The notes beneath the pieces were generated by a model. It ran no database searches, was not told the DNA's origin, and saw only the letters and a list, made by a program, of their open reading frames with translations. From the IMG/VR virus record IMGVR_UViG_3300045988_159959: a DNA stretch of 64,000 nt. One strand, written 5' to 3'. This stretch comes from a virus. Position numbers and translations under genes: made by a program. Within the stretch, counting starts at the first letter, position 1; the number at the start of each line of letters is the position of its first letter. Below, one piece after another: positions 636 through 62,831 of the stretch.

Positions 636-1865
636 CTATTCATTTTCTTTAATACACATAGGATGTCTCTTCCCTCTGCATAATTTGATTTTCCTATACG
701 AAGCATCTTTTGGATTATTCCCTTCGATATCCCGGATATTGAAACTACCTGTTTTTCTTCTACCATATATAAACATTATTTTATTGTTATATAATACTTT
801 ATCAAATAAACGAAATCCAAAAACCTCAAATGGAGATTGATTCATACGTTTCAATCCTCCCTTCTGAATCTTTATTTTATGAATCTGGCGATTATGTCTT
901 CTAATCAATTTTATCCTATAAAGGCAATTAATTCTATCAGCTTCGAAGTTCTTGGATATAATAAAAGCATCAGATGCATGAGATTTCTTTATGTTATGAA
1001 TTATACGGTTGTGTTTCGTTACATAACCGTATGTCATGAATACGTTTGGATACAAACCTTTTAAACAATCACACAACCTCCATCTCATTATCCCCATTAC
1101 GGCAGCGTCGCGAAGCGACTTGCCTCTCCGTATCTTCAAGTCTATCTTACCTTTATGATAATCATCATGACATGTCTCACATAAGGTTATTAAATTGGAT
1201 GGAGAATCACCACCGGTTTTCCTTGATTCAATATGATGAACGTTAAGGACCTTGTTTTTTGACTTACCCTTGCAATGACAGCATTTGTGACCATCACGGT
1301 ATAAGACATATTCCCTTACGTTCCAAAAACCAAGTTGTTCTCCTTCTTGATATAATTTACCCTCTATGTCAGGATTCTTGATCTTTTGTGTATCAAATTG
1401 AGCTACTTCAATAACGAGGCGAGTAATTGGCAAAATAGAATACACATTTTGAATAACGCGAATATGAGCGTCTATCTTGTTCTGCACCGAAGGTGCTAAC
1501 CATCCTTCACGTTTTGATTTTATCCTATTATCAAAACGAGGTTTTCTATACCTCAATCTTGACCGCCTTGTCCGTCTTAGCTCTCTCCTTGTAGACAAAA
1601 GATCTACCATATCACTTCTCAGAGTCACTTCACTCGCATAAAGCTCTTTGCTTTTCGTCGTTGCTGACAAACCAACATGTTTGGTTCCGGCATCAACGCC
1701 TAACGTAATTTCTTGTTTGTAACTATCGGATATGTACGTCAATCGGATGGTAAACGGACATAGGTTTACAACGACCGCCTGTTTTGTTTTAAGCAGTCTC
1801 CTAACCTTTCCATGCCTTGTTGTTGGCATAAGCGGTTTACCTTCTATGTTCTGTACATACACCAT
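636..1865 (-). CDS. iscB: IscB RNA-guided nuclease (RuvC split by HNH, Cas9 ancestor family), apparently intact
   Basis: 409 aa. N-terminal PLMP motif (EGKPLMPTTRHGK). RuvC-I LGVDAGTKHVGLS. Arg-rich bridge helix RRELRRTRRSRLRYRKPRF. RuvC-II LVIEVAQFD. HNH CCHCKG...NVHHIESRKTGGDSPSNLITLCETCHDDYH. RuvC-III KSHASDAFII. Confidence 0.85.
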   Translation of the reverse strand: MVYVQNIEGKPLMPTTRHGKVRRLLKTKQAVVVNLCPFTIRLTYISDSYKQEITLGVDAGTKHVGLSATTKSKELYASEVTLRSDMVDLLSTRRELRRTRRSRLRYRKPRFDNRIKSKREGWLAPSVQNKIDAHIRVIQNVYSILPITRLVIEVAQFDTQKIKNPDIEGKLYQEGEQLGFWNVREYVLYRDGHKCCHCKGKSKNKVLNVHHIESRKTGGDSPSNLITLCETCHDDYHKGKIDLKIRRGKSLRDAAVMGIMRWRLCDCLKGLYPNVFMTYGYVTKHNRIIHNIKKSHASDAFIISKNFEADRINCLYRIKLIRRHNRQIHKIKIQKGGLKRMNQSPFEVFGFRLFDKVLYNNKIMFIYGRRKTGSFNIRDIEGNNPKDASYRKIKLCRGKRHPMCIKENE

Positions 1866-2294
1866 TATTCACAAACAACATAATGTTTATTCAACATAAG
1901 TCAGGATAAAAATCCTGTTAGTACCCATCGCCAATGTTATCAAAGGTTTGTTGTAAGCAACACTGTTTCCCAAATACAAAAACTGTTTAATCACTTACCT
2001 TAGAACTACAGACTTGGGCAAATATCCGTAGGTAACTATCTATTCTTTAATAACGTAGTTCTTGTTTCAGAACTTAGGCTAATAACCAGATCCGATTTTA
2101 CGGATGTATTAAAATGGGATAATGATTTTATCTGATTTTAATACTATTTGCGGTTATATTCTTGTTACTTGATATTAGACTAAAATGTCATCTCCTACTT
2201 TCAACGCTTTAGTTGTTATATTGATAGGAAGGATTTTCTTTTTCCCGTCTGCAAGAGTTACCTCATACATCTTTTTCTTTTCAAAATGTCCTAA
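1866..2294 (-). ncRNA. Candidate omega RNA (HEARO-like) scaffold upstream of iscB; extent uncertain, and the guide is expected at the 5' (high-coordinate) end
   Basis: It lies immediately 5' of iscB, where IscB omega RNAs are encoded. 309 nt contain no ORF. Minus-strand hairpins: ATCCG/CGGAT, AGTTCT-gaaaca-AGAACT, TTACCT...AGGTAA, and CAGGAT-tttt-ATCCTG just before the ATG. No covariance model was run. Confidence 0.5.
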
Positions 2295-3728
2295 TCGTCC
2301 TCTTGTCAAAAATCTTTCAAAAAGTAAGTTAAACTTCAAAGGATGTGTATTTATGATACCAAAAAGATAAGAAATTAAAGAACCGCTTGCACTTCCGCGA
2401 CCCGCACCTAACAAAATGTTATTCTTTTTACACCAATTGACAATATCACGCAAAATCAAAAAGTAATCCACAACATCACCAAACTTAATAATCTTAGATT
2501 CTCTTTCGATCCTTTCCACAAGCACATCTTCCGAGTAATCTTCCAAAAGTTCCGGTTTGTTCTCCAACCCTTCATAAATCAAAGAATCAAACATATCTTC
2601 ATTGGAAGTGTATTTTTTCTTTTCTTCTTTTGTCATTTCATAACGGGGAAGATGTCGACTGTCAGTAGGAATTTCAAAGTTGCAATTTTCCGCAATCATA
2701 TCAGCGTTAGTCCTTGCTACCATATAAAATTCCTCCCCTCTTTCACTATCCCCGAACAAAGAAAGAAGTTCTTCCATGTAAGTCGCTTCATCTTTGAAAT
2801 ACTGATTGCCGGATTTGTAGTTTACTTTCCCGTCAATCTTATTTACGACTTCCCGAAGTATGGCATATTCCGGCTCAATATAATAAGCATCACAAATAGC
2901 TACGGGCTTCATTTTGGACTTATAGAACTGTTCAAAGTTCATCAAATAGAAGGTATCCCTATCGTTCTTTGTGTATTTCACGGTATCTACTTGCCAAAAC
3001 ACATTGGGTTTGTTTCTCAAAAGGATAGGAACATCTTCAAGCTGTATTGTTTTTGGATCGAATACAATGTACACATCTGAAACATGTTCCGACATGTCTT
3101 TTGGAGAAACGAATTTTCCATTATCACCACAGTTCAAAATCTTGTTTAATGCAAGCAAATGCTGCCAGCCCTTTTCATTCTTTGCATAGACTTTGTAAGT
3201 ATAGACAATATCCTTCTTTTCATCCTTTACCGGGACTTCCAGACCAAACACAGGGATGATTCCTTCTGCCTTGCAAGCGTTTTGAAATTTGAGCGCACCT
3301 GCCAAAGTTGCTTTTTCAACAATCCCCAATCTTTCTATTCCTAAGAATTTGGCTTTCTTTACCCAATCCGGGTACAATCCCGTACCATTCAAAAGTTCAA
3401 ACGATCCATGTACTCCCAAAAAATTAGTGGAAAGACCTGCCATTTCACTTTGTCCTCTCCATTTTACCCGGTTAAGTTTAGGCTCGTTTTCCTTCCCTTT
3501 GTCCAATGTGTACCATACACCACCAAGACGAAAGATGTAACCATCTTCTTCGGTGCGTTCACAATCCCAACGAAAATCCTCTGAAAAGAAATATCCATCT
3601 TCGTTAGGCTCAAAAACTTCGTATGATTTTCCCTCAAAGAAAACAGTGTAATTTTCTTTGTCGAGAGAGTATTGTATGGTATTGGAAGAAAGGTATTCTT
3701 CCAACTCATTTAAAAGTCGATCCATCAT
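2175..3728 (-). CDS. dnaE: DnaE-like polymerase, upstream segment (N-terminal extension, PHP domain and start of palm). Homology ends near 2295; the last 39 codons are insertion-derived
   Basis: PHP-type FLGVHGSFELLNGTGLYPDWVKKAKFLGIERLGIVEKATLAGALKFQNACKAEGIIPVFGLEV. Also GRGSASGSLISYLFGIINTHPLKFNLLFERFLTRGR, matching RGS.AGS...Y...IT..DP....LLFERFLNPER of DnaE. Confidence 0.85.
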   Translation of the reverse strand: MMDRLLNELEEYLSSNTIQYSLDKENYTVFFEGKSYEVFEPNEDGYFFSEDFRWDCERTEEDGYIFRLGGVWYTLDKGKENEPKLNRVKWRGQSEMAGLSTNFLGVHGSFELLNGTGLYPDWVKKAKFLGIERLGIVEKATLAGALKFQNACKAEGIIPVFGLEVPVKDEKKDIVYTYKVYAKNEKGWQHLLALNKILNCGDNGKFVSPKDMSEHVSDVYIVFDPKTIQLEDVPILLRNKPNVFWQVDTVKYTKNDRDTFYLMNFEQFYKSKMKPVAICDAYYIEPEYAILREVVNKIDGKVNYKSGNQYFKDEATYMEELLSLFGDSERGEEFYMVARTNADMIAENCNFEIPTDSRHLPRYEMTKEEKKKYTSNEDMFDSLIYEGLENKPELLEDYSEDVLVERIERESKIIKFGDVVDYFLILRDIVNWCKKNNILLGAGRGSASGSLISYLFGIINTHPLKFNLLFERFLTRGRLGHFEKKKMYEVTLADGKKKILPINITTKALKVGDDILV

Positions 3729-3752: not shown

Positions 3753-3786
3753 GCAAACATACAACTTTTGTATGCAATCATTGTAT
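3753..3786 (-). promoter_or_regulatory. Putative Bacteroidota-type promoter (-7 box TATGTTTG on minus strand) inside a conserved 34-nt motif, upstream of dnaE
   Basis: The reverse complement of 3754-3761 is TATGTTTG (TAnnTTTG), 26 nt upstream of the ATG at 3728. The 21 nt at 3753-3773 are identical to 62143-62163. Confidence 0.5.
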
Positions 3787-13520: not shown

Positions 13521-13553
13521 TACAATCATTGCATACAAAAGTTGCATGTTTTA
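13521..13553 (+). promoter_or_regulatory. Inverted copy of the conserved 3753/62143 motif
   Basis: The reverse complement of 13523-13553 differs from 3755-3785 at 2 of 31 positions. On the plus strand it reads TTGCATacaaaagTTGCATGTTTT. Confidence 0.4.
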
Positions 13554-13566
13554 AGTGATAAAAGAA

Positions 13567-13585
13567 GGGGAAGTTTTTGTTCCCC
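13567..13585 (-). terminator. Rho-independent terminator hairpin
   Basis: GGGGAA-7 nt-TTCCCC, followed on the minus strand by ttcttttat. Confidence 0.55.
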
Positions 13586-13595
13586 TATCTCGTCA

Positions 13596-13616
13596 GCAAA
13601 ACTACAACTTTTGTAA
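13596..13616 (-). promoter_or_regulatory. Putative promoter / fourth copy of the motif core (-7 box TAGTTTTG)
   Basis: The reverse complement of 13597-13604 is TAGTTTTG, preceded on the minus strand by TACAAAAGTTG, with a TTTG 19 nt further upstream. Confidence 0.4.
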
Positions 13617-56981: not shown

Positions 56982-58685
56982 TTACTTCTCTCCCCAGTTC
57001 TTTTCAATGTAAGACATTGCAGCACTCATGATAGGGTTGGAATCGAACGATTTCTGTGTACCTTCTTTGTCTTCTAACGCAATTTGTCGATCCACTTCTT
57101 CGTTCATCGCATCACCTCCGTACATAGCTTGCTGCATCTGATATTGTTTTTGAAGCTGGTAGGATTGATTCAAGATGGTATCGGTTTCCGGGTTAAATTT
57201 ACGTCCAGAGTATTTTTCAAAAATATCTTCCAGACAAACCATACCGTTTTGAATTTTCTTAGCATCAATCTCAACCTGCCTTCCTTCATCTTCCGCATCC
57301 ACACCCGTAAAGACAAATTCAAAATCTTCGTCCAGTTCTGATACAAGATAGTAATTAATTACTTCTTGTAAGAACACAAGAATAGGTTTCAAGCCTTTAT
57401 CTTTTGAATGCTGCAAACGTTCCTTTTGTCCAGCTTGTCCAAAGATATTTGTTTGATCTTTGAATTGGAAGCCAAGCTCTGACGGATCAATACGATAAAC
57501 CGCACAAGTCATAACAAGTAGGAATTTTACCCACTCGCTAAACTCCATATCCCGGTTGGTGTTTTTAGACAGATCAACCCATTGAAGGTCTAAACCGTTT
57601 ATAATCGGCGTTCTATGTGAATTTTGAACCCCCACCATTGTCTGTTGCCATGCCTGCCTAAATTCGCTCAAAGAAGCCTGTGATATGTTTGGATTCTTAA
57701 CATTGATAAATCCTTTAGGGTTAGACCCCTTAGAAAAATATGAACCATTATATTCAAATCCCCACAAAATCCATGTCATAACGCTGGACAACGTTTCCAG
57801 TTCAGATGTTCCATACCCGTTTTTATAGATGTTGGTCGATTTGTTTCGGATACCGATACCAAGCTCCCAAGGATAAAAAATAACGCTTTCATGCGTAACG
57901 GGATGCTGCATGATCTGACCTTGCCAGCACATACAATATTTCGGTAAGTATCCTTTGAATCGGTACTGTTCAAATTCTTCATGGAACTTCGGATCGATAC
58001 TGTCAAGAAAACGTACCAAAGAAGCATCTACAGCACGATAACGAGCCAGATTCCATGATCTGTCCCTTACTATTTCAAAAGCAAGTTGATCAAGAGTAAG
58101 GCTATCAAACACAACCTTTCTCCCAAAGTCTTGAAATGTGTCAAACGATTCCCATTTGTCGTGAAAACCGCCTTCTTCCAAAAACTTTCTGATATAATTG
58201 ATTTTTATCTGATCTTCCCTTGAGCGTTCTGCGCTTACCTTTTCAAAAGGATTCCGTTTTCTTCTGATAGTGTATCCTTCTTTCTGCTCATCAGTGCTGA
58301 AATGAAGAAAATTCTGAACCTGCTCAACACGAGTATTGACAACGGCCCGAACGACAAAGATGTCTCCCATTCTCCGAAGCACCTCAAAGGGCATAGAACC
58401 GTAAAAGTTAGGGTCTTTATAACCCCTGCCCGTATCGCTCGCTTCGTCCGGGTTGAAAAATACAGCCTTTACATCATCCTGTCTTTGATTGATATTCCCC
58501 ATATAAAGGTTGGCTTTCACCAAATCCTCCAAGTTGTCAGACCGGGACATCTGTTGTAATTTAGATTGAAGTACAGTAGGAAGAGTTTTTTGCAATCCTA
58601 CAATATCTTCCAAAGAAAGGCTGGTCAGACCCTTTAACAGGTCTGACTTTCCTTGATTTTTATTTTTATCTCTTTTCCTACTCAC
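56982..58685 (-). CDS. Portal protein
   Basis: 567 aa; position immediately upstream of the Mu F-like gene. Confidence 0.6.
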   Translation of the reverse strand: MSRKRDKNKNQGKSDLLKGLTSLSLEDIVGLQKTLPTVLQSKLQQMSRSDNLEDLVKANLYMGNINQRQDDVKAVFFNPDEASDTGRGYKDPNFYGSMPFEVLRRMGDIFVVRAVVNTRVEQVQNFLHFSTDEQKEGYTIRRKRNPFEKVSAERSREDQIKINYIRKFLEEGGFHDKWESFDTFQDFGRKVVFDSLTLDQLAFEIVRDRSWNLARYRAVDASLVRFLDSIDPKFHEEFEQYRFKGYLPKYCMCWQGQIMQHPVTHESVIFYPWELGIGIRNKSTNIYKNGYGTSELETLSSVMTWILWGFEYNGSYFSKGSNPKGFINVKNPNISQASLSEFRQAWQQTMVGVQNSHRTPIINGLDLQWVDLSKNTNRDMEFSEWVKFLLVMTCAVYRIDPSELGFQFKDQTNIFGQAGQKERLQHSKDKGLKPILVFLQEVINYYLVSELDEDFEFVFTGVDAEDEGRQVEIDAKKIQNGMVCLEDIFEKYSGRKFNPETDTILNQSYQLQKQYQMQQAMYGGDAMNEEVDRQIALEDKEGTQKSFDSNPIMSAAMSYIEKNWGEK

Positions 58686-58697
58686 GTCAATAAAAAA

Positions 58698-59900
58698 TTA
58701 AGCGGAAGTGCCTGCTGCCTGTGATAGCGTAATTGTTATTTGCTTTGTTCCTTCCGATTGTTTTACAACTGCTGACCCTTCTCTTGCTGTACCAGTATTG
58801 ACCGCTGCTACAACGGAATATTCGGTTGTTCCTTTCGAAAAACCTGTACCGGAAACTGTCGTAGTATAATTCACAGCCACAGGACTACCACTATTCTTTC
58901 CATTTACCGTCTTTTGTTTTGTAGAAGAAATAGAAAGAGTTTTTGTTTCACCCGTAGCAACAAATTCCACTCTTGAAGGGTTTGAAGTCAAATTATAAGT
59001 ATAAGCAACGGTTGCTTTAGGCTGACTTAAATTAATCGTAATTGATTTTGCGCCCGACCCTTCTTGTGTCACAACAAGAGTTCCTGTTCTTCCGGTAGTC
59101 TCATTTGTATTTTCAGTGGCGGAAACAGTATAATTTGCTCCCGATTGAGTTTTCAAAGAGAAACCCGTACCGGTTACCTTTCCTGTAGTATTTACGGTAG
59201 TTGGAGAACCACTGTTCTTACCGTTCAGCTTCTTTTGTCTGGTAGAAGTGATTGTGACCACTTGATCACCTGCCGTTGCAGCAAAAGTAAGAGTTGTCTT
59301 ATTGGCTGTGATCGTATTTTCATAAGTAATAACAGATGCAGCTTGACTTAAAGAAATGGTTGCTGTTTTTCCACTCTCATTCTGAATGATTGTAGCTGTA
59401 CCAGTTCTTTGCTTGTCAGTAGGATTCTCTGTAGCAGAAATTTGACTTATTCCCGCATTACCCGAAAAACCTGTACCGGAAATTTTAATCTGAATAGCAA
59501 CGGCTATGGGTTTCCCGTAAGGCGCACCGTCCCGATATTCCTGCTTGCTGGAAGTAACAACAAAATTCTTGCTTTCTCCCGTATTAACGAAAGAAAGTGA
59601 TTTTGTCTGCAATGTAAACGTATATTCCGTTCTATCAAGAACGTTCACATAATTGATCTTTTCTTCTTCCAGTCCTTCGGGATAGCCGATAAGACCCAAT
59701 CCATTAGCAAGACACCATTCTTTGAACTTACCGATATTGTAGGTAACGCCAGCATCAATCACAATACCGAGAGACTTGTAATATTCAACGTCACCTACCG
59801 TATTTTCTGTTACAAAAACATTCATCTGATTGTCAATTCCATCAGTTATGACAGTCATTTGCTTGCTTAAATCCTTTGTCGTAAAAAGAAGTCTTAACAT
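58698..59900 (-). CDS. Surface/decoration-type protein with three BACON-like Ig-fold repeats
   Basis: Three ~90-aa units end in the patterns ATENPTDKQRTGTATIIQNESGKTATISLSQ, ATENTNETTGRTGTLVVTQEGSGAKSITINLSQ and AAVNTGTAREGSAVVKQSEGTKQITITLSQ. Confidence 0.55.
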   Translation of the reverse strand: MLRLLFTTKDLSKQMTVITDGIDNQMNVFVTENTVGDVEYYKSLGIVIDAGVTYNIGKFKEWCLANGLGLIGYPEGLEEEKINYVNVLDRTEYTFTLQTKSLSFVNTGESKNFVVTSSKQEYRDGAPYGKPIAVAIQIKISGTGFSGNAGISQISATENPTDKQRTGTATIIQNESGKTATISLSQAASVITYENTITANKTTLTFAATAGDQVVTITSTRQKKLNGKNSGSPTTVNTTGKVTGTGFSLKTQSGANYTVSATENTNETTGRTGTLVVTQEGSGAKSITINLSQPKATVAYTYNLTSNPSRVEFVATGETKTLSISSTKQKTVNGKNSGSPVAVNYTTTVSGTGFSKGTTEYSVVAAVNTGTAREGSAVVKQSEGTKQITITLSQAAGTSA

Positions 59901-61030: not shown

Positions 61031-61443
61031 TCTTTTTTATCGGATTCCGATTCCTCCTTCTTTTTCTTGTAGTCAGAATCTTTTTTGTAAGGCATACCCA
61101 CAATTCCTTTTCTTCTGTTCTCAGGAGTATCTTTATAGAAACCTATTTTGTTTTTTACAGGAAGTCCGGTTGCTCCGGCTTTTTCGATTGTTTCTTGGTC
61201 GGCATCCTTCCACTCAATCTGTGGTTCTCTATAATATACAACAGATTTGTTGAAGTTTTCGTCAACCACAACAACACGATTCAGAGACACAAAGTCTATA
61301 GCTCCATGTTCCCTTTCAGTAGGATCAATACTTTTCACAACGTCAGAAGCAAAGTTTTTCACCTGTTCCAACGTATAAACCTCCCAGCCATTCTTTTCTG
61401 CAAGGCTTAAAAATTCATTTATAGGAAATTCTTGTACACTCAT
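61027..61443 (-). CDS. hypothetical protein (start moved to the ATG at 61443; the ORF track uses a GTG at 61494)
   Basis: MSVQEFPINEF... begins at an ATG. The GTG-extended 17 codons overlap a 10-bp helix of the upstream structured leader. Confidence 0.45.
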   Translation of the reverse strand: MSVQEFPINEFLSLAEKNGWEVYTLEQVKNFASDVVKSIDPTEREHGAIDFVSLNRVVVVDENFNKSVVYYREPQIEWKDADQETIEKAGATGLPVKNKIGFYKDTPENRRKGIVGMPYKKDSDYKKKKEESESDKKD

Positions 61444-61469
61444 GGACGTAATTGGGTGCTTATACACTT

Positions 61470-61624
61470 CTTTGCACCAAAAGTATATTTTCACGCTTCA
61501 TAGGGACATTGTTGAAACCATCAACCCGTAATAATTTCTAAAGAGGTCTCTCCACATGCTTAAATTCCCGGTGCACCACCGGTATCGTTAATAAAATTGA
61601 TGATTAACATAAACTGGTGCAAAG
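61470..61624 (-). other. Structured 5' leader: multi-hairpin junction closed by a 10-bp helix
   Basis: CTTTGCACCA (61470-61479) pairs with TGGTGCAAAG (61615-61624). The helix encloses three hairpins: GTTGA/TCAAC (61511-61525), CCGGTG/CACCGG (61568-61582) and GTTAAT/ATTAAC (61587-61608). Confidence 0.45.
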
Positions 61625-61658
61625 TTATACTAATCACCTATTTATAATTCAACACATA

Positions 61659-61666
61659 CAAAAGTA
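61659..61666 (-). promoter_or_regulatory. Putative -7 box (TACTTTTG on the minus strand) upstream of the structured leader
   Basis: Matches TAnnTTTG within ACATACAAAAGTATAAC, which is related to the conserved motif. Confidence 0.3.
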
Positions 61667-61696
61667 TAACTTTTTTCCTACAAAAGAATGTTTTAT

Positions 61697-62137
61697 AAAG
61701 AAAAACTTGTAAGCAATACTTTCTATGTTGGTGCGGCAACCGTACTTGTATCGCTTACAAGTGCCGTTCTCCCTCCGCACAGGGATCAAAGGTAACGACG
61801 AAGCCTTTAAAGTAGGAAGTGAATTTGTCTCGCCACTCTGCCCGCAGGACAATGTTACTTCAAAAGAAGCCTTTCTCACGAGAAACCATTATCTCACGAC
61901 ATCCTACAAGCCGCCATTTGCCCTACTTCGGGACTTATTCGTTAGGAACGATTCTTATAGGGGAGCCGGCATTTCCTGACTCGGTTCGTTTATCATTAGA
62001 GACATTCGATCTAACACTTCCTTAATTTTGGGAAACATTAAGATCGTTCCCCATCAACCTCACATAGCCTTCAAAAAGAAGAAGGGAAGCTATCGCGAAT
62101 CACTTCCCAAACTTCAACTTTTTAAGCTATCTCATCT
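61697..62137 (-). ncRNA. Candidate ~440-nt structured non-coding RNA of unknown class
   Basis: No ORF of 80 aa or more on the minus strand. The region looks more GC-rich than its flanks by eye. It lies directly downstream of the promoter motif at 62143-62176. It has many local and long-range complementarities (listed in findings) and ends in GCTTACAA followed by gtttttcttt. Confidence 0.45.
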
Positions 62138-62142
62138 CGACT

Positions 62143-62176
62143 GCAAACATACAACTTTTGTATTCAATAATTGCAA
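62143..62176 (-). promoter_or_regulatory. Putative promoter (-7 box TATGTTTG); a copy of the dnaE promoter motif, pointing into a non-coding region
   Basis: 62143-62163 is identical to 3753-3773 (21 of 21 nt; 30 of 34 over the extended motif). Confidence 0.5.
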
Positions 62177-62185
62177 TTTTTGATG

Positions 62186-62416
62186 TTAAATATCCTTAAT
62201 ATCTACCCCACATGCAGAAGCTATCAGTAGAGACACTTCACGTTCCTTTTCCGGCATCTTCTCAATAGAAGCCTTATATCCTTCCGGATTGCCGTTATAA
62301 CTCTCTACGATCGCTTTCTTTTGTTCTTCTGAAATGTTGTAGAAAGCCAATACACTTTTCTTTTCTTCTTCCGTCATGGAAGACTTGTTTTTAATGTTAG
62401 GTAATTTGTTTATCAT
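62186..62416 (-). CDS. hypothetical small protein
   Basis: 76-aa ORF in array. Confidence 0.4.
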   Translation of the reverse strand: MINKLPNIKNKSSMTEEEKKSVLAFYNISEEQKKAIVESYNGNPEGYKASIEKMPEKEREVSLLIASACGVDIKDI

Positions 62417-62417
62417 T

Positions 62418-62831
62418 TTATTTCATCCTTAAAAAAGATGGTGTTTCTGCCATTTCAATTTTCTTACTCTTTACTGCCATTCTCTTTCTTATTGCCTTAA
62501 AAGCAGCCTTATAACATCTTTCACCACAAAAACCTGCTTTATACTTATCCTGTTGCACTGACGAAAAGTAATCAGAAATGTTTATTCCAGCTATAGTTAA
62601 ATTCATAAGCATTTCCTCTATAACAACAGGACTAAGATCACCTCTCCTTTGTTTATACCACAACACTGGGTTTCTTTCAAAACTAATCCTAATGCCAAAA
62701 TACTCATCTTTTACCTCTCTATCTGGCTTATAATGACACAAAAACTTAAATTTGTATTCAGCAGCTTCTTTTATTCTATCAAAAGTATGAATACTTCCAG
62801 CAGATATAATCATAATCTTACTCATAATCAA
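62418..62831 (-). CDS. hypothetical protein
   Basis: 137-aa ORF in array. Confidence 0.4.
   Translation of the reverse strand: MIMSKIMIISAGSIHTFDRIKEAAEYKFKFLCHYKPDREVKDEYFGIRISFERNPVLWYKQRRGDLSPVVIEEMLMNLTIAGINISDYFSSVQQDKYKAGFCGERCYKAAFKAIRKRMAVKSKKIEMAETPSFLRMK

Follow-up and report, generated by a model that had tools for sequence, protein, structure and literature searches.

The window, a 64-kb stretch of phage DNA analysed here as a whole, contains at 62142-61697 a minus-strand region of ~435 nt that has no coding signal and has a putative promoter, P1, directly upstream. Read along the minus strand of 61400-62260, a 76-aa ORF reaches its stop codon at 62186 and is followed by TTGCAATTATTGAATACAAAAGTTGTATGTTTGCAG. 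The ~440 nt that come next lack a long ORF and end in GTATTGCTTACAAGTTTTTCTTT. The GC content is 0.44-0.46 across 61700-62100 vs 0.31-0.38 in the flanks, so that the impression of a GC-rich region gained in an earlier reading of this DNA (the sequence-only reading) was correct.

The 21-mer GCAAACATACAACTTTTGTAT is present as exact copies at 62143-62163, within P1, and at 3753-3773, where shuffles predict 0 matches. The second copy is just upstream of a dnaE-like ORF (2175-3728) whose 517-aa product matches phage DNA-polymerase families, and the earlier claim that the region and the polymerase gene have the same promoter is thereby upheld. Within the window, the promoter core ACAAAAGTTGnAnnTTTG lies at 3754(-), 13535(+), 13597(-) and 62144(-), four copies against 0.03 expected from shuffles. 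Downstream of the copy at 13597(-) is a block encoding a polymerase exonuclease subunit, the large terminase, DnaB, primase, MazG and thymidylate kinase, which runs to the dnaE-like gene and ends there. Because this core is common to the RNA gene and the replication genes, the promoter of the RNA gene is of the replication-module type, which differs from that of the adjoining structural and lysis genes.

Two other sites in the window are worth recording. At 13535-13614, two replication-class promoter copies point away from each other. The copy at 13535(+) faces into the plus strand of a window whose transcription is otherwise all on the minus strand; no gene is evident there, and the product may be an antisense RNA or some other non-coding RNA. 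At 636-3728, the dnaE-like ORF, of only 517 aa, has immediately after it a HEARO RNA (1917-2126) and an IscB-like HNH protein (636-1865), which suggests an IscB element in or beside a split polymerase gene.

To describe conservation at the locus, we used an alignment (A1) of 43 distinct intact copies. TAnnTTTG is the Bacteroidetes-type -7 promoter motif, and the -7 box of P1 is kept in this form in 43/43 homologues; on the published Bacteroides consensus, P1 is probably active as a promoter. At the other end, a T-run follows the stem H15 (Table 1) in 43/43 homologues, and transcription would presumably terminate there. A simple terminator scan made no call at H15 and its U-run, the loop of H15 exceeding the tool's 8-nt limit. 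Beyond the U-run, the -7 box of a second predicted promoter, P2, which matches the same consensus, reads TAnnTTTG in all homologues, as TACTTTTG or TACATTTG. Its conservation ahead of the downstream gene marks the RNA as a separate unit. Taken together, the conserved P1, the stem with its U-run, and P2 before the next gene argue that the RNA is a transcription unit of its own, with probable 5' and 3' ends set by these conserved motifs.

Between the terminator region of the RNA and the 155-aa gene, the window has a 187-bp presence/absence element (61453-61639, minus strand). This element is absent from the GenBank phage MT835500 and many other relatives, is 99.5% identical where present at the site, and has a 78% copy in an unrelated phage record, MT836001 (L002:3001-3186). 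Its 10-bp inverted ends (CTTTGCACCA/TGGTGCAAAG) each lie within a TAnnTTTG-like box, and CCGGTG-GTG-CACCGG is one of its several small hairpins. The sequence could be a miniature mobile element or else encode a small RNA. On the upstream side, the ORFs between a 367-aa ORF and the RNA encode 107, 102 and 147 aa in one relative (L237:1300-2700) vs 137 and 76 aa in the window (62186-62831). Since the upstream genes differ between relatives, the RNA has no fixed upstream protein partner.

Homologues among human-gut phages

Comparison with GenBank phages by blastn revealed one close relative, MT835500, from human faeces. A search with the downstream 138/155-aa gene returned 53 IMG/VR loci, on contigs of up to ~100-108 kb. 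The element occupies the same position in 53/53 of these loci, all of them retrieved through the neighbouring 155-aa gene, with 73-97% nucleotide identity. Wider searches for homologues, whether with the neighbouring protein alone or as a profile, with the portal protein, or with DNA patterns in IMG/VR, JGI metagenomes and GTDB genomes, led back to the same ~60 contigs or gave chance hits, and nothing else. In a literature search, we found no description of the RNA of 61697-62142.

Genes for a tail sheath, a portal, a major head protein and a large terminase are present in the phage; by terminase, its nearest cultured relatives are Bacteroides thetaiotaomicron phages, at 33% identity. The carriers are one genus-level group of ~100-105 kb tailed Bacteroidales phages of the human gut, with a contractile-tail sheath and promoters of the Bacteroidetes type.

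For the portal gene (56982-58685), many relatives (L276, L278, L279, L281-L284, L286, L288-L291) align in one piece only over residues 1-356 (or 1-322), and the match in L286 spans 2367 nt, a pattern that points to an intron, intein or endonuclease gene interrupting the portal gene in some members. An alignment in pieces, three in this case, was also seen for the MT835760 terminase. Many contigs of the group (L238, L244, L246, L247, L249, L251, L258, L259, L267-L269 and L274) start or end ~50-850 nt upstream of the portal gene (window ~58700-59900), inside a 400-aa BACON-repeat gene. These contig ends may mark a genome end, or assembly may have broken off at a repeated or hypervariable stretch.

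Coding tests and the minus-strand fold

ORFs listed within the region are short and lie on both strands. Across the 43 homologues, 232 indels have lengths that are not multiples of three vs 63 that are, and variable columns fall on the three codon positions without periodicity (63/66/59). The indel lengths and the absent codon periodicity exclude a protein-coding explanation, in agreement with the sequence-only reading, which had seen no credible ORF. A protein or small peptides expressed through an unusual start or genetic code, with the structure incidental, has next to no probability: stop-free stretches of 74-107 codons do exist, mostly on the opposite strand, but in addition to the indels and the missing periodicity, whole segments are swapped for unrelated hairpins, and pairs are kept at 99.8% via compensatory changes.

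Folded as a single sequence, the minus strand does better than its shuffles (z = -3.30; -2.63 for the plus strand). The consensus structure, obtained with RNAalifold on A1 plus one added loop-loop pairing, has 93 pairs in 16 helices on the minus strand, with 99.8% of cells canonical in the 43 homologues. Compensatory double changes are found at 22/93 pairs (276 cells), vs 1-4 pairs when the partners are slid by 1-3 columns, a shift that leaves 43-52% paired. The covariation score is 0.240, vs 0.03-0.065 in register-shifted controls, and 0/500 shuffles reach the observed values in a control that ignores phylogeny. The consensus includes 421 G-U cells and is therefore valid on the minus strand only (99.8% canonical pairs vs 89.4% on the plus strand). 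Covariation among related phages and the strand test thus both back the claim of a highly structured minus-strand RNA made in the sequence-only reading.

The homologues all come from one tight phage clade of about three sequence lineages with recombined modules, so that independent covariation events are few, fewer than the cell counts suggest, with most double changes apparently tracing to these three or so lineages plus recombination. Compensatory changes, G-U strand asymmetry and the lack of a coding signal, which together characterize a conserved structured RNA, are all found in the region, and we are confident that the ~435-nt gene for a structured non-coding RNA of a new family is real.

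Table 1 Features of the RNA gene and its flanks, in window coordinates; helices and domains follow the consensus fold
Feature	Position	Strand	Description
P1	62143-62176	-	Putative promoter; -7 box TATGTTTG (62151-62144) and upstream TTG element; includes the 21-mer
D1	62054-62142	-	Long irregular 5' hairpin; almost invariant sequence; purine-rich internal loops (A1, RNAalifold)
H4	62107-62085	-	Apical hairpin of D1, GGAAGT...GCTTCC; 1 compensatory pair, several G-U changes
D2	62030-62052	-	Hairpin GGGG...CCC; stem conserved, helix 5 98.8% paired
H17, 5' strand	62015-62021	-	GGAAGTG; partner CACTTCC at 61815-61821; long-range, closes central domain
D3	61841-61984	-	Multi-branch core; outer helices H6/H7, with H8, H9, H10 and H11 inside
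H6/H7	61976-61970 with 61854-61847	-	GGAAATG with CATTGTCC; 2 (H6) and 3 (H7) compensatory pairs
H8	61968-61965 with 61900-61897	-	CGGC with GTCG
H9	61961-61955 with 61909-61903	-	CCTATAA with TTGTAGG; encloses variable insert 61954-61910; 2 compensatory pairs
Insertion site TAGGATG	61900-61906	-	Between 3' strands of H9 and H8
H10	61895-61880	-	1 compensatory pair
27-nt block	61853-61879	-	GTGAGAAAGGCTTCTTTTGAAGTAACA; H11 hairpin and single-stranded flanks; identical in 43/43
H11	61870-61857	-	Hairpin within D3 core
H12/H13	61763-61799	-	Hairpin with conserved internal loop GUUACCUUUGAUC; H13 2 compensatory pairs
H14	61780-61775 with 61736-61731	-	Kissing helix, 6 bp, GUGCGG with CCGCAC; 100% paired
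H15	61762-61748 with 61719-61705	-	15-bp stem, part of 61705-61762; encloses H16
H16	61740-61727	-	Small hairpin; loop CCGCAC is kissing partner of GUGCGG
U-run	61696-61704	-	TTTTCTTTA; directly after H15; presumed RNA 3' end, terminator-like
P2 -7 box	61659-61666	-	TACTTTTG; predicted promoter of downstream 138/155-aa gene

Domain D1 begins with 13 bases, AGTCGAGATGAGA (62142-62130), that are identical in 43/43 homologues, and its helices 1-4 are 99.6-100% paired. Since the first ~90 nt hardly vary, covariation is neutral on pairing in this domain, and the near invariance could be a DNA-level instead of an RNA-level signal. The GGGAAG/CTTCCC complementarity picked out by the sequence-only reading is supported and corresponds to H4. 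The loop of D2 differs in length by lineage and is as short as 4 nt. The long-range pairing of GGAAGTG with CACTTCC (H17) is plausible: the alignment here is insufficiently homologous for column-wise counts, and the support comes from constrained folds, in which H17 forms in 4/4 divergent variants from differing sequences (GGAAGUG/CACUUCC, GAGGAG/CUCCUU and GGAAG..UUAGAUUGAA/UUCAGUUUAA..CUUCC).

Within the core, H6, H7, H9 and H10 are all 100% paired. The 3' domain is dominated by H15, which occurs in three sequence versions, is 99.8% paired and has compensatory changes at 9/15 pairs. The proposed pairing of TTGTAAGC with GCTTACAA ahead of the U-run falls within this stem and is strongly supported. 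The same reading had set against it a local hairpin, ACTTGTA/TACAAGT, as the other arm of a terminator/antiterminator choice. This hairpin is lost in 2/3 sequence variants, and the switch falls with it, only the long stem and U-run being conserved. The GTGCGG/CCGCAC pairing survives as a loop-loop (kissing) contact, H14, with 2 compensatory pairs and a joint change of GUGCGG/CCGCAC to GGGUGG/CCACCC. Its two 3' hairpin loops are ~40 nt apart in one compact domain, and intramolecular pairing is the simpler reading. Two of the suggested pairings were not borne out: CCTTC/GAAGG, where CCTTC becomes CCTCC with no compensating change, and CGATCTTAA/AGATCG, which is found in the window's subgroup only. 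The best-supported helices overall are H15, H6, H7, H9, H10, H13 and the loop-loop contact H14. Between lineages, peripheral hairpins are swapped or resized, and the core helices and the 27-nt block are fixed.

Insertion of tnpB into the gene

In 8/53 loci, the gene is split by a 1.25-1.35 kb insert at TAGGATG (window 61906-61900); the heptamer is present on both sides of the insert, whose terminal repeats are degenerate. The insert codes for a TnpB of 403-408 aa in the same orientation as the RNA gene, with matches to PF01385 (OrfB_IS605) at 1e-25 and PF07282 (Cas12f-like TNB) at 1e-11. The window itself has no TnpB. For comparison, we fetched 80 tnpB loci of 281 relatives in IMG/VR. Some tnpB copies lie elsewhere in phage genomes whose RNA gene is intact, and blastn of the RNA against the 80 loci detected no homology in the ~70 copies outside the RNA locus, which have 84-91% protein identity and other genomic contexts. 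The DNA shared by the elements begins ~40-60 nt upstream of the ATG, runs until ~40 nt past the stop and is bounded by inverted terminal repeats of ~14-21 bp (GGTAACTATATACC ... GGTATATAGTTACC); in 13/28 distinct insertions, an 8-nt direct repeat, usually after TAA, flanks the element. Because the other copies come without the RNA and have ends of their own, and because TAGGATG flanks the insert, the RNA gene is, on this comparison, an insertion target and not part of the tnpB element.

It is scarcely tenable that the RNA is instead an insertion-sequence remnant, with the left end as its 5' half, the right end plus an omega RNA as its 3' half, and tnpB deleted. The TnpB gene of the split loci does lie exactly mid-RNA and in the same orientation, and a structure with a pseudoknot is typical of TnpB omega RNAs, but the copies elsewhere have no homology to either half of the RNA and possess inverted-repeat ends of their own, the two points on which we rejected an insertion-sequence end or TnpB omega RNA. 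Moreover, TAGGATG on both flanks is expected for an insertion with target duplication, and the RNA ends in a U-run that leaves no room for a transcribed guide.

Insertion was accompanied by loss of structure. The 5' strands of H6, H7 and H8 are missing from 7/7 realigned interrupted copies, and D2 and part of D1 are also missing from 4/7; these copies have lost 13-21 pairs, whereas virtually every pair is kept in the 43 intact ones. Interruption by tnpB, with helices lost only in interrupted copies, fits the pattern of an RNA that is dispensable, yet under purifying selection where intact. In the intact gene the target sequence is TAGGATG-TCGTGAGA. One possibility is that the intact gene is a natural target site of the RNA-guided TnpB of sister phages, in which case the locus would be a battleground between competing phages.

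The tnpB element (L062-L135, for example L065:2440-3790) is unusual in its own right. It has inverted repeats and a direct repeat, unlike the classical IS200/IS605 ends, which to our knowledge have no inverted repeats and no duplication. Its TnpB has the motif IVGYNDGWKQE where the RuvC-II glutamate context is usually found, and lacks most of the zinc-finger cysteines.

Possible roles and relation to known RNAs

On balance, we lean slightly towards a stand-alone non-coding RNA gene of a new family with a trans-acting scaffold or decoy role; the scaffold or decoy mechanism on its own, reached by elimination, is a tentative proposal. Transcription would start just downstream of P1, alongside the replication genes, to give an early or middle transcript, and would stop at the 15-bp stem H15 and its U-run, releasing a discrete RNA. 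This RNA would fold into four parts: a 5' hairpin domain that hardly varies, a small hairpin that does, a core made up of a central multi-branch domain closed by the long-range helix, and a compact 3' domain held by kissing loops. It would then work in trans by virtue of its three-dimensional shape, binding protein as an accessory scaffold or decoy that serves host takeover or counter-defence early in infection, and would be neither an antisense regulator, a guide RNA nor a cis-acting leader.

A function that depends on three-dimensional shape is suggested by the swapping of peripheral hairpins around a held core and tertiary contact, and by the base-for-base conservation of the 5' domain, as in a protein-recognition surface. 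It is also suggested, over an antisense function, by the lack of an antisense target: complementarity to other minus-strand sequence in the 64-kb window nowhere exceeds 12 nt, which is chance level. Nothing ties the RNA to a partner protein, and the neighbouring proteins gave no informative Pfam, PHROG or PDB match.

We regard it as improbable that the RNA is a leader acting in cis on the lysis and structural genes downstream, with a terminator that is read through conditionally, in the manner of the lambda PR'-tR' 6S transcript or of put-type RNA, which makes RNA polymerase terminator-resistant. The position would suit such a leader, since the RNA ends in a terminator-like stem and adjoins a same-strand block (155-aa gene, holin, portal, major head protein, tail sheath), but a conserved second promoter separates the U-run from the next gene, and in many relatives the 187-bp element is inserted there with both units undisturbed. 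The promoter of the RNA is of the replication-module class, unlike the adjacent late genes, and the terminator stem has no conserved alternative. The downstream genes are in place in the tnpB-interrupted loci inspected (L012 and L037), and every locus was retrieved via the downstream 155-aa gene.

The promoter class common to the replication genes, together with an AT-rich region just downstream, would also fit an origin-of-replication transcript, that is, a structured pre-primer RNA beside an AT-rich unwinding region, comparable to ColE1 RNA II or T4 oriF/oriG. This is very unlikely, given that the strong covariation of the terminal stem speaks for an RNA hairpin and termination rather than for a lasting RNA-DNA hybrid, that 15% of relatives have an interrupted, decaying copy of the gene, and that there is no skew inflection at the site. 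Another RNA function, including catalysis or self-assembly, takes up the remaining probability. A bolder extension of the new-family reading, in our view rather doubtful, is that the RNA founds a new class of large ornate phage RNAs and has its own activity. Candidate activities are multimer self-assembly via the covarying GUGCGG/CCGCAC loops, and the sequestering, early in infection, of a host protein of defence or RNA metabolism; for either, the nearly invariant 5' domain would be the recognition surface.

Few structured RNAs of bacteria and phages exceed ~400 nt, and the large ones with a worked-out function are mostly catalysts or large assemblies. The present RNA has a well-supported fold with a tertiary loop-loop contact, clear gene boundaries and a size suited to cryo-EM, and the sister phages, some with the gene intact and others with it interrupted, amount to a set of natural knockouts. 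Its carriers are human-gut Bacteroidales phages, a group that is abundant yet little understood, and the partner or activity of the RNA could reveal a new phage use of RNA in infection, a claim limited by the narrow, single-clade distribution.

A scan of 61400-62400 against Rfam 15, as the sequence-only reading had recommended, produced no family match, either at the gathering scores or below them: the 4227 models, which include RNase P, tmRNA, SRP, 6S, group I/II introns, ROOL, GOLLD, OLE, raiA and riboswitches, gave 0 matches at E<=10. Two divergent homologues had inconsistent hits only, at 9-24 bits vs thresholds of 38-100 bits. ARAGORN identified no tRNA or tmRNA in the whole window.

The idea of a guide scaffold for the resident IscB was not sustained. 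The HEARO model (RF02033) matches the window at 1917-2126 only, with 97.9 bits, in a true copy that adjoins the IscB-like ORF 636-1865. The HEARO/IscB omega RNA, which belongs to a mobile-element nuclease, is likewise a structured RNA, but the present RNA ends in a terminator-like stem and not a guide; with neither a HEARO match at E<=10 nor an adjoining nuclease ORF at 61697-62142, we rejected this assignment. We likewise rejected a TnpB omega RNA with a flanking guide, as the 3' stem runs straight into the conserved U-run and then the promoter. The two are alike in being pseudoknotted, structured RNAs, and tnpB lies inside the RNA gene in the interrupted relatives, but the present RNA pre-exists as the insertion target, and loss of core helices follows insertion. 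Neither an RT nor any other Pfam domain was detected in the ORFs up- and downstream. A retron, DRT or UG27-type RT template RNA was set aside on the lack of an adjacent RT gene and because the RNA is a single unit; UG27 RNA arrays of Bacteroidota phages are multi-unit and RT-linked (bioRxiv 10.64898/2026.09.22.753630).

Lambda 6S (PR'-tR') and HK022 put resemble the locus as short promoter-to-terminator units directly upstream of a late-gene block. However, the present RNA is far larger and has a conserved tertiary contact, its promoter is of the replication-gene class, and the downstream genes have a separate predicted promoter. With phi29 pRNA it has in common that both are phage-encoded structured RNAs with complementary loop-loop pairing. 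The loops of pRNA pair between molecules, in a ring on the portal, whereas here they are ~40 nt apart; the two are unrelated in sequence, and nothing points to a packaging role for the present RNA.

The comparison with large ornate phage RNAs holds as an analogy but not as family membership. ROOL and GOLLD do not match in sequence or structure, their Rfam models finding nothing at E<=10, and the present RNA is smaller (~435 nt), belongs to another host phylum, judging by its Bacteroidota-type promoters, and has no adjacent tRNA genes. Like ROOL and GOLLD, it is hundreds of nucleotides long, multi-domain, phage-borne and apparently its own transcription unit, has loop-loop contacts and appears to be non-essential for the phage. 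In our assessment, the RNA is a new family within the loosely defined kind of large ornate phage and prophage RNAs.
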